The translations under genes were made by a program, and so were the position numbers. The notes under the pieces were generated by a model. It ran no database searches. It worked only from the letters and a program-made list of their open reading frames with translations, and was not told the DNA's origin. A stretch of 31,026 bases of DNA, taken from IMG/VR virus record IMGVR_UViG_2667527789_000013, positions 1 to 31,026 of that record; one strand, given 5' to 3'. Positions 3,129 through 28,265 of the stretch are shown piece after piece. Origin of the DNA: a virus. Its lineage: Duplodnaviria; Heunggongvirae; Uroviricota; Caudoviricetes. Every line of letters starts with the position of its first letter. Within the stretch, counting starts at the first letter, position 1.

Positions 3129-5259
3129 AAGTGCGATTTACGCGAGAAATCTCATTCCAGAATCCTCCAGCGTAGATTAATTCGATAGTGTCAAAAGCAC
3201 CTAACATAAAATCACCATTGATACGCAGATTTCCTGTCTGATTCTTCAACGTTATGTTATCAGTTGATGTATTACGTATGAGAATGACCCTCATGCCTTC
3301 ATTACCACCATTGATAGTCGATAACTCCTGTGTACCACCAGATAATTTATGAAAGTTTCTGGTAACTGTAATTTCGCCACCAGATACAGTGACCACAGTA
3401 TAAGATGAGTTAGCGATAATACCTTTATCATCAACTGATAATTTAATGTCATTATCTTTCATTACATGGAAATTTCCTGTATTGTCCCGACGAAGAATAA
3501 TACCACTAGTGGTAATTTTTGGATTATCTGTTAGCTGAATATTGGTTTGATTTTTACTTCCAGTAAAGCGTCCACCAACTTTTCCTTTCCAAAACTCCAA
3601 TCCATAGCCAGCATTACTACCAGAGACAATCACGGTTGATTCTGTAGCAGTTTCCAGTAAAGCACCTGAAATACGAATCTGGTCTGAATTAAATCTGCAT
3701 CCAAAGAAACCTATATCACCTGTATTACTGGTTCCAATTTGTTTTTTAATACCCCCAGCTTGTTGGCTACCTGCTTGTGTTGCATTCTCAAACACCACAC
3801 CAAAATACTGAACGGCTCCACATCTGTCATATTTTACAGGAACATCCAGCTTAGTCGCTAACCAGGTTCCGTGAAAAGAAATACCGTTTCTGGATCCTTT
3901 TCCTGAAGCTGAAGGAATATCAATAAAAAGGGCATGCTCCCCCCATTGTTCAACACCTTTTTCGGTATTACGACTATGATGATCATTGCCAAAAATAGCG
4001 CCTCCGTGCATATTGAATGCACTGTTAGTTCCTGTTTGATCACCAATAATAGCCAGGCCAATATTACCCATTGTACGTGTATTGATAATTGTACAACCAT
4101 CGGGATCCTGCCCCATGTGTACAATTCCAGATTTTTTAAAGTAGCCACCTACAGTAACATTCACCGGCCCTGACAAATCAGTATTGTCAAGTATCAACCC
4201 AACATCATAATCAGCAGAATTATCATTATTAGGTTGAGTTATATTCCCATGTTGATCTTTAAAGTCAAAATCACAAACGACAGAAAAATCCCCACCAAAT
4301 GCAGTAAGCCCTTTATCTTTTCGACCTACATTACGGATGCAGTAACGCATCGATGAGAATTTATCGCTTCTACCTGTAGTAAATACCTTGCTACCAGTAC
4401 CTTTGAATAAAAGGCAAGTTCCAGGCAATTTGTGCTTATTTCCTGGAACCATATAAACTTTATCATCGTTTAGTGGAAATACACCTATTTTTGCCGCACC
4501 AACACCAGTCCACTCGCACGTTTTATCAATCCCATCAGTACAAACGTAAACACCTCTTGGGAAATGTAATGTGGCACCAATTGATGTGGCTGTATCATTT
4601 GCCAGCTGAATATATGGGGTATCATCACTAAAACCATCCCCCTTCGCCCCAAAATCGCGAACACTGACGGTATCCCGCATCTTATCCTGGAACGTTCGGT
4701 ATACTGCCCCAGAACCATACTGAATAAACCAGCCAAAACCACCAACAACCCCGGCGATTGCAGCATCGACATAATTACGCATTGAGCGATTATTTACAGC
4801 GTCCTGCTCAAGTGATGGCTCTGCAAGGTTAGATATTCTGTTTTGCTTTGCATCGTAATACCTGGCAAGCAACGAAGGTTTTATGAGCGCTCGCCTGAAC
4901 CATCCGATACATTGCTGAATAAGCATGGTCAGATAGTCAAGTGCATCCTCGTGGACCTCTGGAAAAAACTTCCCCTGATTACGAAGGTCTGTCTCCTGCA
5001 CTACATCAAGTACACGGTTTATAGTGATTCTCCAGCCATCAGCAAGCGGAGATGGCAGAACCACAGAACCGCCACTATAACTACCTGCACCAGTTACCGT
5101 ATAACCAGTATCCAGTACCAGAATTGTTACATTCCCGTTTATGTCCGATACCTGAACCACAAGGTCTGAATTTCTGAAAATTCGAAACCTGTACGGGAAT
5201 GATGTCGTAACCCCGTTACCAGTGTATTCATTGTGGTCAACTTCGGTTGAGACTGTCAT
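3127..5259 (-). CDS. Tailspike protein (T7-gp17-like N-terminal adaptor + beta-helix receptor-binding/depolymerase body)
   Basis: 710 aa; N-terminus NEYTGNGVTTSFPYRFRIF matches the conserved tail-fibre/tailspike N-terminal adaptor motif of T7-supergroup podoviruses; remainder is Gly/Asn/Thr-rich repeat-like with DFGAKGDG, typical of pectate-lyase-fold tailspikes; GGAG SD before ATG at 5259. Confidence 0.8.
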   Translation of the reverse strand: MTVSTEVDHNEYTGNGVTTSFPYRFRIFRNSDLVVQVSDINGNVTILVLDTGYTVTGAGSYSGGSVVLPSPLADGWRITINRVLDVVQETDLRNQGKFFPEVHEDALDYLTMLIQQCIGWFRRALIKPSLLARYYDAKQNRISNLAEPSLEQDAVNNRSMRNYVDAAIAGVVGGFGWFIQYGSGAVYRTFQDKMRDTVSVRDFGAKGDGFSDDTPYIQLANDTATSIGATLHFPRGVYVCTDGIDKTCEWTGVGAAKIGVFPLNDDKVYMVPGNKHKLPGTCLLFKGTGSKVFTTGRSDKFSSMRYCIRNVGRKDKGLTAFGGDFSVVCDFDFKDQHGNITQPNNDNSADYDVGLILDNTDLSGPVNVTVGGYFKKSGIVHMGQDPDGCTIINTRTMGNIGLAIIGDQTGTNSAFNMHGGAIFGNDHHSRNTEKGVEQWGEHALFIDIPSASGKGSRNGISFHGTWLATKLDVPVKYDRCGAVQYFGVVFENATQAGSQQAGGIKKQIGTSNTGDIGFFGCRFNSDQIRISGALLETATESTVIVSGSNAGYGLEFWKGKVGGRFTGSKNQTNIQLTDNPKITTSGIILRRDNTGNFHVMKDNDIKLSVDDKGIIANSSYTVVTVSGGEITVTRNFHKLSGGTQELSTINGGNEGMRVILIRNTSTDNITLKNQTGNLRINGDFMLGAFDTIELIYAGGFWNEISRVNRT

Positions 5260-5362: not shown

Positions 5363-5379
5363 ATTACCTTTTGGGTAAT
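5363..5379. promoter_or_regulatory. Operator-like palindrome ATTACC-TTTTG-GGTAAT (site A)
   Basis: Perfect 6-bp inverted half-sites separated by 5 nt; one of six similar intergenic sites; in the divergent region between tailspike and the 5455 gene. Confidence 0.4.
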
Positions 5380-5712: not shown

Positions 5713-5734
5713 AGAAAAGGCCGCAAGAGCGGCC
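5705..5734. terminator. Bidirectional rho-independent terminator between convergent genes
   Basis: Stem GGCCGC / GCGGCC with AAGA loop (5719-5734); T-run on the minus strand side (TTTTCTTT) and weaker T-rich tract on the plus side; overlaps stop of the minus-strand gene. Confidence 0.5.
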
Positions 5735-6462
5735 TATCGTTTCGCTTTGTGATCGTCCCAGCACGTTTTGCACCATGCCATTAAACCATCCGCATTTTGA
5801 TTATTAGGATAAAAGCTGGTTCGTTTTCTGCGGACATTACAAATTGGGCACCACTTCATATGACGTGTATTCTTTGGGCCATCAAGACACCTTGCACACC
5901 ACTTAGTCAATCCATCTGGATTTTTTGACGATTTCCGGAATTTTTCATATGGAAGGTTTATTCTGCATCGCAAACACTGCTTGCGGCCACTTGAAACTCT
6001 GTTAGCTGATTCTTCTTTTGACGGCGATACAGAAGGTATTCTTGCTGGCTCTGATACTGCCTGAGGTGCTTTTTTAGGTGACTGAGACGATATGTCATCA
6101 CCAGGAAATCTTCCATGATATGCCGGACGTGTTGACACTCCAGGTGGAAGCTCTGCTGCAAATGGCTTTGGCTGAATCAGTTGCCTCTCTTTTGCTAACT
6201 CCTGCTGTTTATAATATGTCTGGATTACCGCACTATCATAAGCAGGAGGTACGGAAATATTAGGCGCATTACCTCCCGTTTTTTGAAACTGAGTAGAGGT
6301 GTGTTCTATCACCTGTGTACGATTAATCGTTATCTCCCCATCTTCGGTCTTTATCGTTTTGTTATGATTAACGACCGTACGATCAGAGATCTTAGTCTTG
6401 TTCTGGTGAAGGACATAAATAATCACCGCAACCACACCAACAACTATCCAGAAAACTTCCAT
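5734..6462 (-). CDS. Membrane-anchored protein with tandem C-terminal zinc-ribbon-like repeats
   Basis: 242 aa; N-terminal TM helix (FWIVVGVVAVIIYVL) then KTK; long Pro/Ser/Gln-rich linker; two repeats of C-x2-C-x(20-25)-DGL-x2-WC-x2-C (CLRC...WCARC and CPIC...WCKTC); GAGGA SD upstream of ATG 6462. Confidence 0.6.
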   Translation of the reverse strand: MEVFWIVVGVVAVIIYVLHQNKTKISDRTVVNHNKTIKTEDGEITINRTQVIEHTSTQFQKTGGNAPNISVPPAYDSAVIQTYYKQQELAKERQLIQPKPFAAELPPGVSTRPAYHGRFPGDDISSQSPKKAPQAVSEPARIPSVSPSKEESANRVSSGRKQCLRCRINLPYEKFRKSSKNPDGLTKWCARCLDGPKNTRHMKWCPICNVRRKRTSFYPNNQNADGLMAWCKTCWDDHKAKR

Positions 6463-6481: not shown

Positions 6482-6498
6482 ATTACCTTAAAGGTAAT
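6482..6498. promoter_or_regulatory. Operator-like palindrome ATTACC-TTAAA-GGTAAT (site B) overlapping putative promoter of the 5734..6462 gene
   Basis: Perfect half-sites; read on the minus strand this gives TTGATC-N16/17-TACCTT, with the -10-like element inside the palindrome, about 20-36 nt upstream of the ATG at 6462. Confidence 0.4.
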
Positions 6499-6574
6499 AT
6501 CTTGCTTTCAGGTGATCAAGCGTTAAACGTAACAAACCAAATGCGGTTGATTTTGATATCTCTCCGCGTTTATC

Positions 6575-6591
6575 ATTACCTTTGCGGTAAA
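6575..6591. promoter_or_regulatory. Operator-like palindrome ATTACC-TTTGC-GGTAAA (site C)
   Basis: Same half-site motif with one mismatch in the right half; lies just upstream of the structured RNA element and about 270 nt upstream of the Bro-N gene. Confidence 0.35.
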
Positions 6592-6625
6592 TTTACATCG
6601 CACTCCTCTTGTGCCATAGTAATCG

Positions 6626-6703
6626 GGCACTGGCAAAATCCAGTGCCGGGATTGGCGTCCCGAGTTACTAAGTGGCGCATACCACGCCAGACGTGGTTTT
6701 TTT
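6626..6703 (+). ncRNA. Candidate small structured RNA or transcription attenuator ending in an intrinsic terminator
   Basis: Perfect 8-bp stem GGCACTGG / CCAGTGCC with 6-nt loop (6626-6647), then terminator stem CCACG / CGTGG followed by seven T (6682-6703); no ORF with SD in this stretch; promoter not identified. Confidence 0.3.
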
Positions 6704-6859
6704 ATGCGTTAAGCACAGCTATATCCGAATTATGGTGGGCTGGGCAGGGGTCCGAAAGGACGCCGGTACCACTTAGGCCGGTACGCCAACCTTGTCCAGT
6801 TCACCACCAGTAATTGGCGTTGCGGTGGTGATTAAAATCACTAAGTGGAGATAACCACC

Positions 6860-7570
6860 ATGGCTAATGCTCAAACTGCCATCTTCAAATTTGAATCTGT
6901 TAACCCTATCCGTTCCATCATTATCGATGGCCAACCATGGTTTGTAGCCCAAGACGTTTGTAGTGCGCTGCGTATCCAAAACGTCACCCAATCACTTGAA
7001 AAACTGGATGATGATGAAAGGTCTATGTTCAACATAGGGCATGAACATCGTGCAATTTTTGACAGCCGAGTAAAAGAGATCAACATCATCTCCGAGTCAG
7101 GCCTCTACACACTGATCCTCCGCTGCCGCGACGCAGTGACACCAGGCACTATACCCTACCGCTTTCGTAAATGGGTTACAGGTGAGGTTCTTCCTCAGAT
7201 CCGCCGCACAGGAAGTTACATTAAAAACTCGCTCCCGCAGAAAGAACGCATAAAGATGGTTGCCGACCAGGTAGCCAACGCCACGGCGTCAGCAGTAATG
7301 CAGGCGATGAAGATAGAGAACAAAACCTACAGTGCCCCACTGAAGCCCGGCTACCGCAGCCTGATTCACTCGCCGTCTGGTGTTCTCGGCCTGACGGAAA
7401 ACTCACTGCTGATGAATCTGCTTAACCAGTTGCAGGACGACGGGCACGACGTATCGGGCGCGGCGGCGGAGCTGACCACCATGTTCTGCTACATCGTCGG
7501 TGTGAGCAAGTGCCTGCGTGATATCCAGACGCACGCGGAGTACATCAACGACAAGGCAGGGTTCTTCTGA
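6860..7570 (+). CDS. Bro-N domain antirepressor-like protein (Ant/KilA-type)
   Basis: ATG 6860 with GGAG SD 9 nt upstream (track ORF starts at GTG 6845); N-terminus ...FESVNPIRSIIIDGQPWFVAQDVCSALRIQNV...LDDDE matches the Bro-N motif; C-terminal ~80 aa paralogous to the 5455..5712 product. Confidence 0.7.
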   Translation: MANAQTAIFKFESVNPIRSIIIDGQPWFVAQDVCSALRIQNVTQSLEKLDDDERSMFNIGHEHRAIFDSRVKEINIISESGLYTLILRCRDAVTPGTIPYRFRKWVTGEVLPQIRRTGSYIKNSLPQKERIKMVADQVANATASAVMQAMKIENKTYSAPLKPGYRSLIHSPSGVLGLTENSLLMNLLNQLQDDGHDVSGAAAELTTMFCYIVGVSKCLRDIQTHAEYINDKAGFF

Positions 7571-7613: not shown

Positions 7614-7642
7614 TTGCAGACTGTGGGTGAATAGCGTACTAT
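7614..7642 (+). promoter_or_regulatory. Sigma70-like promoter TTGCAG-N17-TACTAT for the two-gene cassette
   Basis: -35 TTGCAG (7614-7619), 17-nt spacer, -10 TACTAT (7637-7642); about 75 nt upstream of the small ORF SD. Confidence 0.4.
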
Positions 7643-7657
7643 TACCTCAAGGGTAAA
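7641..7657. promoter_or_regulatory. Operator-like palindrome ATTACC-TCAAG-GGTAAA (site F) abutting the -10 element
   Basis: Half-site motif begins within the last 2 nt of TACTAT; followed by a second inverted repeat ACGGATT ... AATCCGT (7657-7685) in the leader. Confidence 0.4.
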
Positions 7658-12750: not shown

Positions 12751-15497
12751 TATTTGCCCCCTGCGTATATATTGCTCGGAAGGTAATTGGCTGAACCATA
12801 ACCGAATGGTTTGGTCAGATCTGGAGGAGTATATCCATCTTTATTGCTGAACTGCGGCAGCGGATTGCCTTCTCTCCGCACTCTAGCCTCATCAACACGC
12901 TGTTGCTGGAACTGAATGGTTTGCCTGTACATTGGAGATGTCAGCTGATCCGGCTTGAAACGAACAGGGAGACCATTTTCTCCAATATAATTTCTCGGTT
13001 CTATCGCTCTGTTTGCGTCAGGCTGTAAAACCATAACAGCATAACTCCTATCCCTTGCCGTAAGGCCATCAGAAACAAGTATTAAGTCCGTATCACTGCG
13101 AGGACCGCCAAAGGATTTTGATTTAAGCTCGCGTTTTTCCTGCTCCCACTGCCCCTGTATCCAGTTACCAGCACCATTATTTACTCCGTACAATGCCTCA
13201 GGTGCATACTTCATAACCTCTGCTTTGCCATTAACCGTAGAAACTCCCCAGGTGGTTCTGATCATGGCATTGGTCATTTTCTCAGCCTGTTCTGCATCGC
13301 CACCTGTCTGTACAAAGTTAGCATCGTAAATTGTCTGGTAATCTCGCTGATAGGCCGCATTTGATTTTCCTGGATCGGTAATATCCGGAGACCACGAACC
13401 AAAGGAAGTCAGACTGCTGGCGTTATTTTGTGCAGCAGTTGCCCTCGCCGCGACATATTTTTTGTCTCGCATGGCAGTGGAAAGCATCTGTTTCATTCGG
13501 TCATCCTGTTGGAACACCTGGCTGTAAGCCATATCAACAGCCTTATCCTCCGGCACGCCAGCGCGGGAATAATCGTAAACCTTGCCGTAAAATGCCATCG
13601 TACTTTTATCAAGTGTTGCCGCTGCCGCCGGATTATTATCGAATAACTGACCGTAGAATTTTGCCATCGGGACAACCAGCGCAGGATCTCTTGATGTTGC
13701 TCCACTGTTAAGCATTGTTTTAACCTGAGTTGGTATCATGCCGCTTTTAGTTGTGACGGTGACCAGTGTATTGATGCTCTGCGGATCAGATATGGAAAAC
13801 GAAGGCGCGATATCCTGCGCGAAATAACGGTCTACCGCTGCCTGATTGTTTTTGTCGTTCGGGTCCAGCGGGAAGTTATTTTGCATTGAAGACACGAACC
13901 TGTTTCTTCCCTGCTGAATCTCCCACTCCCTATTCATCTCTTTAAATTTGGCCTGCATTTTCTCCCAGCGTTGCTGGTTAGCTGCAAATCCAGGAGCGTT
14001 TGGATCCTGTGGACGTAAACGTTCAAGAATGTCTTGTCGTCCTTCTGGAGTGAGGTCTTTAGCGGCGCCAATGACACCTCCATATTGTATCTGCGCCTGC
14101 ATATCCTTCCACTTCATAGCGCCAATGCGCGGACCATTGGCCCGGATAAAATCGTCCTCAGAAGGTAACTTCTCAGGTTTCAATCCTTCATCAAGGGCTG
14201 AATATGCATCTTTAACTACGGTGCTAAGCTGGTCCGCATACTGCTGGCGGTACTGATTTCTCAGCTCATTAGCCTGCCTCAATGCCTGTATTTGCATTTG
14301 AGGGCTCATAGCATCAAATGCCGCATTGCCCGTATAACGCTTAGGTGAATCAAGGTTAGTTAGACCAAGGGCTGCCGAGATACCAGTTTCAAGCTGTTCG
14401 GTGCTATAAGGCATACTGCCATTTTCGTGTTTAATAATCCCAGCACATAAAGCAGCTAGTGTCTTTGGGTTAGAGATATCAAGCTGATCATTCTCCCCAA
14501 CACCAAGCTCACCACACAATGCCCTAATATAAGCATCAGTATTATTACCATCACTAGCCGGAGCATAGCGATTAACAATCTCGCTAACGGTGTCATAGCC
14601 TTGACGCTGGTAAGACAACATATTTTTACCCAACGCGCGGATTCCATGCTCAGGGGTAGCAAACGTTGCAAAACGTCCATCGCTACCGATCTGACCTTCC
14701 CACGGGTTAGATTTGCTCGCTTCAATATTACCAGGGTTATTATTACGTAAACCACGAGCATCCAATGAATTACCATGTGATATTGCACGACTCACACCAT
14801 CAAGATCCCCTGGCTCTCCATTAACCTGAAGAAACTCGTTGTATTTTTGAGCGATATTTCCTATCCATGCTTGCTGCCCCATTTGTTCCTTGAGCTGAGT
14901 TTTCTGCTGAACACGCCACTCATCAGGAAGCCCATGCGCATCAGCGTATTGATCAATAGATTCAAATCGCTGCTTGGCTAAATCGACAAATGCTTGGTTA
15001 TCGCTATATAGCCCCGCAGACTGAGTGACAGCCAATGCATTTCCTGACAAATACGTTTGATCTTGAAATTGCTGAAACTGCCCAACTTCATATCGACGTG
15101 CCTGATTGTAATAAGACTGCATAGACTGCTGGAGTTGAAAGGATAATTTATTCCTTTCCTCACTTTCAGGAATTGAGTCTAATAATGCCTGAGCCCTTTC
15201 CTGCATATTTTTCATAACAGCGTCACTCTGACCAAGAGCGTTTTTACCCTGTTTAGAAATCAGCCCATTTTCAGGGTTGTTAATCTGGTCATCTGCAAAT
15301 TGGTTAAATTGCAGTAACGCCTCCTCGGCCATAGCAACATTCGCTTTCTGCCTGGCTTCACCATATGCCACCGCATACTGATCTGCGACATTCGCCAGCA
15401 CCTGACCTGCTTGAGGAACATCGAAGGTCTGAAAACCACCGGTTTGCACACCACGACTTTGCACCTGGCGTCCGGATGTAGTAGGAACAACAGGCAT
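12750..15497 (-). CDS. Internal virion/ejection protein (T7 gp15-like position), 915 aa, with a possible peptidoglycan-hydrolase-like segment
   Basis: AGGAGG SD; position and size fit gp15-like; residues about 245-365 contain LRNNNPGNIEA...W.G...F.TF.TPEHGIRA...YAP, which I associate with virion-associated muralytic domains (unverified). Confidence 0.6.
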   Translation of the reverse strand: MPVVPTTSGRQVQSRGVQTGGFQTFDVPQAGQVLANVADQYAVAYGEARQKANVAMAEEALLQFNQFADDQINNPENGLISKQGKNALGQSDAVMKNMQERAQALLDSIPESEERNKLSFQLQQSMQSYYNQARRYEVGQFQQFQDQTYLSGNALAVTQSAGLYSDNQAFVDLAKQRFESIDQYADAHGLPDEWRVQQKTQLKEQMGQQAWIGNIAQKYNEFLQVNGEPGDLDGVSRAISHGNSLDARGLRNNNPGNIEASKSNPWEGQIGSDGRFATFATPEHGIRALGKNMLSYQRQGYDTVSEIVNRYAPASDGNNTDAYIRALCGELGVGENDQLDISNPKTLAALCAGIIKHENGSMPYSTEQLETGISAALGLTNLDSPKRYTGNAAFDAMSPQMQIQALRQANELRNQYRQQYADQLSTVVKDAYSALDEGLKPEKLPSEDDFIRANGPRIGAMKWKDMQAQIQYGGVIGAAKDLTPEGRQDILERLRPQDPNAPGFAANQQRWEKMQAKFKEMNREWEIQQGRNRFVSSMQNNFPLDPNDKNNQAAVDRYFAQDIAPSFSISDPQSINTLVTVTTKSGMIPTQVKTMLNSGATSRDPALVVPMAKFYGQLFDNNPAAAATLDKSTMAFYGKVYDYSRAGVPEDKAVDMAYSQVFQQDDRMKQMLSTAMRDKKYVAARATAAQNNASSLTSFGSWSPDITDPGKSNAAYQRDYQTIYDANFVQTGGDAEQAEKMTNAMIRTTWGVSTVNGKAEVMKYAPEALYGVNNGAGNWIQGQWEQEKRELKSKSFGGPRSDTDLILVSDGLTARDRSYAVMVLQPDANRAIEPRNYIGENGLPVRFKPDQLTSPMYRQTIQFQQQRVDEARVRREGNPLPQFSNKDGYTPPDLTKPFGYGSANYLPSNIYAGGK

Positions 15498-25067: not shown

Positions 25068-25096
25068 TTGACATTTAACGCACGAATTATTACCTT
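25068..25096 (+). promoter_or_regulatory. Sigma70-like promoter TTGACA-N17-TACCTT for the plus-strand tRNA/Gp49-like unit
   Basis: Perfect -35 TTGACA (25068-25073), 17-nt spacer, weak -10 TACCTT (25091-25096) lying inside operator site D. Confidence 0.35.
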
Positions 25097-25105
25097 TTAG
25101 GTAAG
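25089..25105. promoter_or_regulatory. Operator-like palindrome ATTACC-TTTTA-GGTAAG (site D)
   Basis: Same half-site motif as sites A-C, E, F; overlaps the -10-like element of the putative promoter. Confidence 0.4.
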
Positions 25106-25426: not shown

Positions 25427-25503
25427 GTGGCATTAGCTCAGCTGGACAGAGCAACCGCCTTCTAAGCGGTTGGTCGCAGGTTCGAATCCTGCATGCCACG
25501 CCA
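25427..25503 (+). tRNA. tRNA-Arg (anticodon TCT; reads AGA)
   Basis: 77 nt cloverleaf by hand: acceptor GTGGCAT/ATGCCAC, D-arm GCTC-AGCTGGACA-GAGC, anticodon stem ACCGC/GCGGT with loop CTTCTAA, variable TGGTC, T-arm GCAGG-TTCGAAT-CCTGC, discriminator G, encoded CCA. Differs from E. coli argU as I recall it in the acceptor and anticodon stems. Confidence 0.85.
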
Positions 25504-27639: not shown

Positions 27640-28232
27640 TGATTACCATCCTGACGTTCTTTGAGTCGCTTCCTGGCTGCTGCTATGCGATCAGCAATTG
27701 TCACATTCACATTAACATCCAGATGTTCTTTGAACGCGTTGACATCAACATGCTTACCAATCAGCTCAAGGTTCTTCACCTTGTCAGGCCATTTAATTTT
27801 TTTGAGGATTGTCTCTATCGAATCCTCGTTCATGTTCATGATGGTCGATGACAGATCAAAGCCACTAAGCGTAGTGCGCCAGATTTTCGGCCACTCACGG
27901 ATTGGTTTAAGGCTCCCATCGTCGTTGAGGATGTCGATCACGTCCATCTGATCGATCTCCACCAGGCGCATGAGAACGTAATCAACACTGACGCGCATTC
28001 GTTTGTTGCGCTCCTCCATCAACTCGGCAATCCGTTTTTGAATACGTTCATCGCGCATCATTACACTGGCTTTAACTGCCGCTGTATTTGGGGAGAATCC
28101 TGCGTTAATCGCTGCCTGAGTCTGGTTTTCAGGCGTTTGGATGTATGACTGGCAATAAGCCTCCTGCATTGCTGTTAGTGGCTTAAATTGCGTTGATTTG
28201 CGTTTATAGGTTTTAGGTTCAGCAGGCATCAT
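27636..28232 (-). CDS. Terminase small subunit
   Basis: About 198 aa from ATG 28232 (MMPAEPKTYKRK...) with GGTGG SD; track ORF 27636..28310 starts at TTG and runs through an upstream terminator hairpin; basic N-terminal region and position upstream of TerL. Confidence 0.55.
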   Translation of the reverse strand: MMPAEPKTYKRKSTQFKPLTAMQEAYCQSYIQTPENQTQAAINAGFSPNTAAVKASVMMRDERIQKRIAELMEERNKRMRVSVDYVLMRLVEIDQMDVIDILNDDGSLKPIREWPKIWRTTLSGFDLSSTIMNMNEDSIETILKKIKWPDKVKNLELIGKHVDVNAFKEHLDVNVNVTIADRIAAARKRLKERQDGNQ

Positions 28233-28249
28233 AACCACCGTGGTAATTG

Positions 28250-28265
28250 TTACCGTTTTGGTAAT
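28250..28265. promoter_or_regulatory. Operator-like palindrome (G)TTACC-GTTTT-GGTAAT (site E) with an extra GGTAAT half-site at 28242-28247
   Basis: On the minus strand reads TACTAT-TACC-AAAAC-GGTAAC-A-ATTACC just before the TerS SD; the same TACTATTACC-N5-GGTAA arrangement occurs at site F. Confidence 0.4.

Follow-up and report, generated by a model that had tools for sequence, protein, structure and literature searches.

How is the antirepressor-like gene ant of an Escherichia coli prophage kept in check, and what occupies the roughly 290 nt without a gene that precede it? The gene lies on the plus strand of a 31,026-nt stretch of Caudoviricetes DNA (IMG/VR record IMGVR_UViG_2667527789_000013; hereafter the window, meaning the whole stretch analysed), with its ATG at 6860. 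An earlier note on this DNA had proposed that the stretch in front of ant encodes either a small RNA or an attenuator controlling its expression, by analogy with P22. Our analysis points to a P1 immI-type RNA control cassette for the antirepressor gene, in a prophage of the phiV10/epsilon15 type, a reading to which we assign a probability of about 85%. The cassette, with a palindrome and a promoter at its upstream end, is on the plus strand (Table 1) and accounts for the gene-free stretch.

Table 1. Positions of the features of the ant locus in the window, with the copies of the palindromic motif.
Feature	Position	Strand	Description
Copies of motif ATTACCnnnnnGGTAAT	5363–5379, 6482–6498, 6575–6591, 7641–7657, 12771–12787, 25089–25105, 28231–28247, 28249–28265
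Operator-like palindrome ATTACCTTTGCGGTAAA	6575–6591	.	Abuts the −35 hexamer; candidate regulator-binding site, from its sequence
Cassette promoter	6592–6620	+	Sigma-70 type; promoter scan
IsrK-type leader sRNA	6627–6703	+	Rfam RF01394, full model length
a1 (UUGGCGU)	6652–6658	+	In the loop of IsrK hairpin 2; a-target copy 5' of C4
b1 (CUAAGUGG)	6668–6675	+	b-target copy 5' of C4; complement of the b' loop
Extended stem	6675–6709	+	GCGCAU (6675–6680)/AUGCGU (6704–6709); MFE −13.9, z = −3.25
C4-type antisense RNA	6728–6811	+	Rfam RF01695, model positions 1–87 of 87
b' (CCACUUAG)	6769–6776	+	Loop of the second C4 hairpin
a' (ACGCCAA)	6783–6789	+	Single-stranded C4 junction
a2 hairpin (third hairpin of the earlier note)	6801–6831	+	Perfect 8-bp stem TCACCACC/GGTGGTGA plus inner stem
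a2 (UUGGCGU)	6814–6820	+	Within the third hairpin
b2 (CUAAGUGG)	6841–6848	+	Overlaps the ant Shine-Dalgarno GGAG (6847–6850)
ant	6860–7570	+	236-aa antirepressor-like protein with Bro-N domain (Pfam PF02498, E = 3e-19)

Promoter, leader RNA and terminator

We found no convincing ORF in the region, as the earlier note had remarked: the one mechanical ORF (103 aa, 6502–6813) extends over promoter and terminator and through two structured RNAs. The folding that the note had called for showed the region as a whole (6600–6875) to be better structured than its shuffled versions (z = −4.4). In the promoter scan, TTTACA (6592–6597) and CATAGT (6615–6620) form the −35 and −10 hexamers, with nine of 12 positions matching, and are separated by a spacer of 17 nt whose last three bases, TGC, place a TG before the −10 hexamer. 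A promoter occurs at the same distance in all of the related loci described below, and we infer that transcription starts near 6627, where the Rfam isrK model also begins.

The palindrome next to this promoter is one of eight copies in the window of ATTACCnnnnnGGTAAT (up to two mismatches allowed), against 0.97 expected. Most of these copies lie just 5' of transcription units, among them the cassette itself and a terminase-small-subunit-like ORF, and by their sequence they may be scattered operators to which a prophage regulator binds. Among the related loci compared, this motif was seen 5' of the isrK-type promoter in phiV10-like loci only.

The first 77 nt of the predicted transcript match the Rfam isrK family with 67.2 bits (gathering score 50). 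Overlapping the 5' half of this match is another (6614–6666), to RF03163 (c4-a1b1), which at 44.3 bits falls just below the cut-off of 46.7; this family is described as 'a1, b1 targets of C4 antisense RNA' and shares an Rfam clan with C4. The features expected of an IsrK RNA are present in order: hairpin 1 (6627–6646) and hairpin 2 (6647–6662), the latter displaying a1, then a single-stranded stretch, b1, a Rho-independent terminator and, right after it, C4. The fold is more stable than shuffled sequences (z = −2.9), and the minimum free energy (MFE) and centroid structures both retain the terminator. Two elements singled out in the earlier note find their place here: because the RF01394 match covers 6627–6703, the perfect 8-bp hairpin at 6626–6647 (GGCACTGG/CCAGTGCC; MFE −13.6 kcal/mol, z = −4.8 against dinucleotide shuffles) and the intrinsic terminator are the first and last stems of the IsrK-type RNA. 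Both were borne out, the terminator scan returning an ACCACG/CGTGGT stem at 6681–6697 followed by seven T up to 6703. The first hairpin is also conserved in relatives, as had been asked of it, with 88% of cells paired and six compensatory pairs in an alignment of 54 sequences.

A further stem encloses the terminator hairpin together with its U tract and can thus form in read-through RNA only. Its arms co-vary across loci (GCGCAU/AUGCGU, CGAUAU/AUAUCG, CGACA/UGUCG and GCGUAC/GUACGC), and the stem could mark a site of processing or stabilise the RNA.

C4-type RNA and its complementary sites

Between the terminator and the third hairpin lies a structured RNA that had escaped the earlier note, a C4-type antisense RNA matching RF01695 with 66.0 bits (cut-off 45). 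In its MFE fold (−43.5 kcal/mol, z = −4.6) a 17-bp basal stem encloses a GAAA hairpin, a hairpin with b' in its loop, and a 7-nt junction made up of a'. All cells of the basal stem are paired in the 54 sequences, with six compensatory pairs. The ends of c4 in the P1 record align with G6734 and C6808, and the conserved end motifs are found here as UUAU|GGUGGG on the 5' side and ACCACC(A) on the 3' side; going by the annotated P1 ends, the mature RNA is predicted to span 6734–6808. By analogy with P1, C4 would be cut from a longer precursor, with RNase P making its 5' end; processing of P1 C4 by RNase P, like its size of 77 nt, is taken from the cited literature and the P1 record.

Each of the two C4 recognition sequences has two perfect complements in the cassette, one on either side of the C4 RNA itself. 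The duplex of a' with either a1 or a2 has a predicted energy of −10.3 kcal/mol, and that of b' with either b1 or b2 of −12.6 kcal/mol. A feature defining C4 RNAs is present, namely complementarity of a' and b' to an a2 and a b2 at the ribosome-binding site (RBS) of the gene that follows in the same RNA. The b-target octamer CUAAGUGG occurs twice on the plus strand in 31 kb, both times inside the cassette, and the 31-kb window holds no second bipartite a+b target elsewhere. Lone sites considered as other C4 targets, CCACTTAG at 5899 and a-type 7-mers at 980, 15556 and 20044, were at chance level and were discarded.

The third hairpin, which ends 28 nt 5' of the ant ATG as had been noted before, likewise held up (MFE −16.0, z = −3.7). 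Its 5' arm, UCACCACC, is also the strand that completes the C4 basal stem on the 3' side, and pairs here with GGUGGUGA; an inner stem flanks a2, which lies in the loop region. The hairpin therefore presents the target and, as long as the transcript is uncut, competes with the C4 fold for the same bases. It is found in about 46 of 48 unique loci, and pairing at its outer positions ranges from 78 to 100%, which agrees with the conservation in relatives that the earlier note had looked for.

Downstream, the Bro-N assignment made earlier for the ant product was upheld by Pfam, and RefSeq E. coli records name the protein 'phage antirepressor Ant' or 'BRO-N domain-containing protein'. By analogy with the systems discussed below, ant is most likely the gene controlled by the cassette.

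Comparison of related loci

A pattern scan of viral contigs yielded 120 stretches, which together with phiV10, TL-2011b, Gifsy-1 and P1 gave 68 unique loci with a C4 fold. Loop lengths differ among these loci, and a/b pairing was therefore scored locus by locus, as self against non-self, and not as alignment columns. In a similar way, the 54-sequence MAFFT alignment misregisters the terminator and the two small C4 hairpins (38–52% paired), and these elements were instead counted by per-sequence folding and with a terminator detector.

The 68 loci carry 15 types of a' and 33 of b' in at least 44 combinations, and sites complementary to a locus's own a' and b' recur at fixed offsets: a1 at −78, b1 at −62, a2 at +5 to +9 and b2 at +32 to +41. 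The a1 site is at −78 in 99% of the loci and co-varies with a', as b1 does with b'. Median match lengths to a1, b1, a2 and b2 were 7, 7, 7 and 8 nt for the locus's own a' and b', compared to 3, 4, 3 and 4 nt for those taken from loci of other types. This swapping of a and b specificities across loci is strong evidence that the pairings are functional, and specificity swapping is the cited basis of P1/P7 heteroimmunity. The b1 match is often the shorter of the two b matches (mean 6.9 nt, versus 8.2 nt for b2). In nearly all loci b2 ends 9–12 nt, typically about 10, 5' of the start codon.

The order of the two RNAs is conserved as well. An isrK match lies directly 5' of C4 in 11 of 12 diverse loci, and of 54 unique leaders 46 have a terminator in the interval from b1 to C4, compared to only 1.8% of shuffles; the other leaders are mostly of the P1 type, where a hairpin with a longer loop precedes a run of U. 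The survey describes one small cassette with swappable 7- and 8-nt codes that would control many unrelated antirepressor genes in enterobacterial prophages.

Two observations were made in passing. Stretch L065 (9650–11210), and likewise L011, L037 and L038, contain two or three complete IsrK-C4 cassettes in tandem, 656 bp apart, each cassette having a different a/b code and being followed by a Rha-like ORF of about 120 aa. In another viral contig (L015), a match to DicF RNA (RF00039) at 4747–4798 lies about 250 nt 5' of an IsrK-C4 cassette.

Proposed mechanism and alternatives

To the family matches, geometry, complementarity and co-variation observed here we add, by analogy with P1 and Gifsy-1, the processing, translational block and decoy role that would make the cassette work. 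A constitutive-looking promoter (around 6592–6620) would start an RNA near 6627, and most transcripts would end at the intrinsic terminator, giving a 77-nt IsrK-type RNA with a1 and b1. Transcripts that read through would contain C4, to be excised as in P1, with RNase P cutting at G6734. C4 would then pair through a' with a2 and through b' with b2 on the ant mRNA; as b2 overlaps the Shine-Dalgarno sequence, translation of ant would be switched off and the prophage repressor protected. The IsrK-type RNA in turn could titrate C4 or compete for it: having both sites, it would relieve the block when abundant, and its shorter b1 matches would make it a weaker competitor than the true target. In Gifsy-1, mutations of a1 in cis raise basal expression (PMC4825925), which a simple decoy model does not predict, and the role of a1b1 is hence only partly understood.

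Several other ways of controlling ant from this stretch can be weighed against C4-mediated repression. The RBS could be hidden without any antisense RNA if, once C4 had folded or left, GGUGGU (6824–6829) paired with ACCACC (6854–6859). That helix is present in the MFE structure of 6810–6875 (z = −3.5), the bases leading into the start codon read CAYYAUG in most loci and can pair with GUGGUG, and in 37 of 47 loci the RBS was less accessible than when the sequence 5' of it was shuffled; however, the effect is small (mean unpaired probability 0.35 versus 0.43; z about −1.4 for the window), and GGUGGUG is invariant, so co-variation offers no test of the helix. The suggestion in the earlier note that the third hairpin might re-pair to cover the Shine-Dalgarno sequence belongs here, in that folding models hint weakly at a possible re-pairing of its 3' arm (GGUGGUGA) near the ant start codon. 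We consider intrinsic masking unlikely as the sole explanation, and it could operate alongside C4 and not in its place.

Transcription attenuation was the second proposal of the earlier note, according to which an antiterminator stem, GTGGCG (6672–6677) with CGCCAG (6685–6690), competes with the terminator and so decides whether ant is transcribed. The terminator does sit between the promoter and ant, and both C4 and the ant mRNA require read-through; moreover, the authors of the Gifsy-1 study speculate, from P4 CI RNA, that a C4-like RNA might affect the terminator (PMC4825925). The stem itself, however, did not survive scrutiny, for it has five pairs only (TGGCG/CGCCA), and just 26% of its cells are paired in the 54 sequences, fewer than in all 500 shuffles and in most slid controls. 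The terminator-retaining folds of the IsrK-type RNA also speak against it, as does the finding that constitutive STnc1160 left the IsrK effect in Gifsy-1 unreduced (PMC4825925). Attenuation is hence very unlikely, and of the two mechanisms originally offered for ant, the small RNA stands, in the form of a terminator-ended sRNA of a known Rfam family, while the attenuator, with its unconserved stem, does not.

The model published for the homologous Gifsy-1 locus (PMC4825925) suggests yet another possibility, translational coupling, in which ant would be translated only when ribosomes read a small upstream ORF, the equivalent of orf45, with its RBS opened by IsrK. The conserved AUG of UUAUGGUGGG, which is the orf45 start and lies inside C4, is found here at 6732, but the frame that it opens stops after 14 codons at a TAG (6774–6776) in the b' loop; in addition, the orf45 frame runs inside a structured RNA in which nucleotides are conserved and amino acids are not. 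As the frame from 6732 ends 84 nt 5' of the ant ATG, coupling of this kind should not be possible in the window, and we give it very little credence.

The sar antisense RNA of P22 is made from the strand opposite to ant. A cis-antisense RNA of this type across the ant start is extremely improbable here, for although the position beside the tailspike gene presumably resembles that of P22 immI, the minus strand has no promoter-like site between 6240 and 8000 and no Rfam matches, the conserved structure is all on the plus strand, and membership of the P22 immI type (mnt-arc-ant with sar) was rejected because a minus-strand promoter-like site is absent near ant and the neighbouring ORFs lack an Arc or Mnt Pfam match. 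The analogy with P22 is accordingly replaced by the precedents of P1/P7 c4-icd-ant and Gifsy-1 isrK-anrP.

Likeness to known systems

C4-mediated repression as proposed for the window follows the immI region of P1 and P7 (c4-icd-ant1/ant2), with which it shares the order and spacing of parts. The P1 GenBank record starts this region with two promoters and a C1 operator, followed by a1 (7 nt), b1 (8 nt), c4 (77 nt), a2, b2 and icd, the last beginning 11 nt after b2. In P1 as in the window, a terminator-like hairpin is present, a' is in the junction and b' in the loop of C4, a2 lies just past C4, and b2 covers the Shine-Dalgarno sequence with the start codon about 10 nt further on; the ends UUAU|GGUGGG and CCACC are common to both. 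P1 c4 is known to repress synthesis of Ant. The two differ in that b2 of P1 is followed by the small icd and then ant, whereas in the window it lies directly on the Shine-Dalgarno sequence of the Bro-N ant gene. Unlike P1, the window has an IsrK-type leader whose terminator has a short loop, and the a and b sequences (UUGACAG and GUUAGUG(A) in P1) are UUGGCGU and CUAAGUGG here; where P1 has a promoter with a C1 operator, the window has a different palindrome.

Gifsy-1 provides the other close parallel. In its isrK-orf45 (STnc1160)-anrP locus both Rfam families match, with the same order and spacing as in the window; the a code is identical (UUGGCGU/ACGCCAA) and the b code different (UCACCG/CGGUGA). 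Both loci have b2 on the Shine-Dalgarno sequence of an antirepressor-like gene and a terminated IsrK leader with read-through. They differ in the domain of the downstream protein (ORF6N in Gifsy-1, Bro-N in the window), in the 45-codon ORF that in Gifsy-1 extends across C4 and terminates on the start codon of anrP, while the corresponding frame of the window stops after 14 codons, and in genome context, which is the lambdoid nin/Q region in Gifsy-1 and a phiV10-like tail-fibre region in the window.

IsrK and STnc1160 are highly transcribed in lysogens. When IsrK is provided in trans in Gifsy-1, translation of anrP rises more than 100-fold (Hershko-Shalev et al., 2016; PMC4825925). Binding to Hfq and trans-activation are known for the IsrK of Gifsy-1 only. 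The compensatory mutants reported in that study, G28A/C162U and G31A/C159U, fall in the homologues of a1 and a' in our alignment. Its authors account for activation by way of the upstream orf45 and alternative folds, and not by relief from a C4 block, and compare the locus with P4 CI/seqA, with no mention of P1 c4 (PMC4825925); a re-reading of the IsrK data in the light of P1 c4 is suggested. The P4 CI RNA with seqA and seqC, the structural analogue named by these authors (PMC4825925), is likewise a processed leader RNA with one complementary site on each side, but its outcome is premature termination of transcription and not occlusion of an RBS, and the likeness is one of description only. 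In APSE phages of Hamiltonella defensa, a c4-family and an isrK-family RNA are reported beside a gene with a BRO N-terminal domain, with matches to a' and b' 5' of the BRO gene; this association is the authors' report, and both host and phage group differ from those of the window.

As both RNAs are members of curated families arranged as in P1 and Gifsy-1, the element is already known, the c4 and c4-a1b1 motifs having been listed in 2010, and we describe no new kind of system. Its sole distinctive point is that ant would be controlled directly, without a leader ORF. More generally, and only tentatively, it is conceivable that IsrK-type sRNAs correspond to the a1b1 leaders of C4 cassettes, ended at the terminator, and serve as internal decoys for C4 (anti-antisense RNAs), that orf45 of Gifsy-1 is C4 itself, and that the 7-nt a and 8-nt b sequences make up a combinatorial RNA immunity code on a portable promoter-to-start-codon cassette placed, sometimes in tandem, before antirepressors of unrelated types (Bro-N, ORF6N, Rha or icd-like). 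In the literature that could be searched, IsrK and c4 are treated separately, joined only by the overlapping c4-a1b1 model of Rfam and by the APSE paper; an explicit statement that IsrK equals the a1b1 leader, and orf45 equals C4, was not found there, although it is implicit in Rfam.

Prophage context

Such a cassette is probably how the prophage keeps its antirepressor silent, and thus bears on induction and superinfection immunity. Phage HEMP4 is 99% identical over the 79% of a 421-nt query that it covers; phiV10, TL-2011b and phiv142-3 are 79–88% identical to the region. In the phiV10 record, 'terminator' is the only RNA-related feature annotated over the cassette stretch. Matches to the 4.5 kb around the cassette were obtained in 552 of 5426 complete E. 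coli genomes. For most other phages, homology sets in near 6570, with the operator and promoter, and ends at 6851–6862, at or just before the start of ant, and the genes downstream in other loci encode Bro-N, ORF6N (with P22_AR_C), Rha or icd-like proteins of 73–77 aa. Given these limits and the variety of downstream genes, the cassette looks like a portable unit of mosaic exchange.

Some neighbouring features of the prophage are recorded here. A tRNA-Arg gene (anticodon TCT) lies inside it at 25427–25503, and Gifsy-1 likewise has a tRNA-Arg. Divergent from the cassette, on the minus strand at 5734–6462, a 242-aa ORF encodes a protein with an N-terminal hydrophobic segment, a Cys-rich C-terminus and a sub-threshold match to Stc1; one of the ATTACCnnnnnGGTAAT palindromes is just 5' of its start. 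Directly 3' of ant, a 59-aa ORF precedes and overlaps a YafO-family toxin-like ORF that scores just over the cut-off for PF13957 (7717–7896 and 7844–8416). Judged by sequence, the two ORFs may form a toxin-antitoxin pair, and the homologue of the YafO-like protein is annotated in RefSeq E. coli records as a YafO family toxin.
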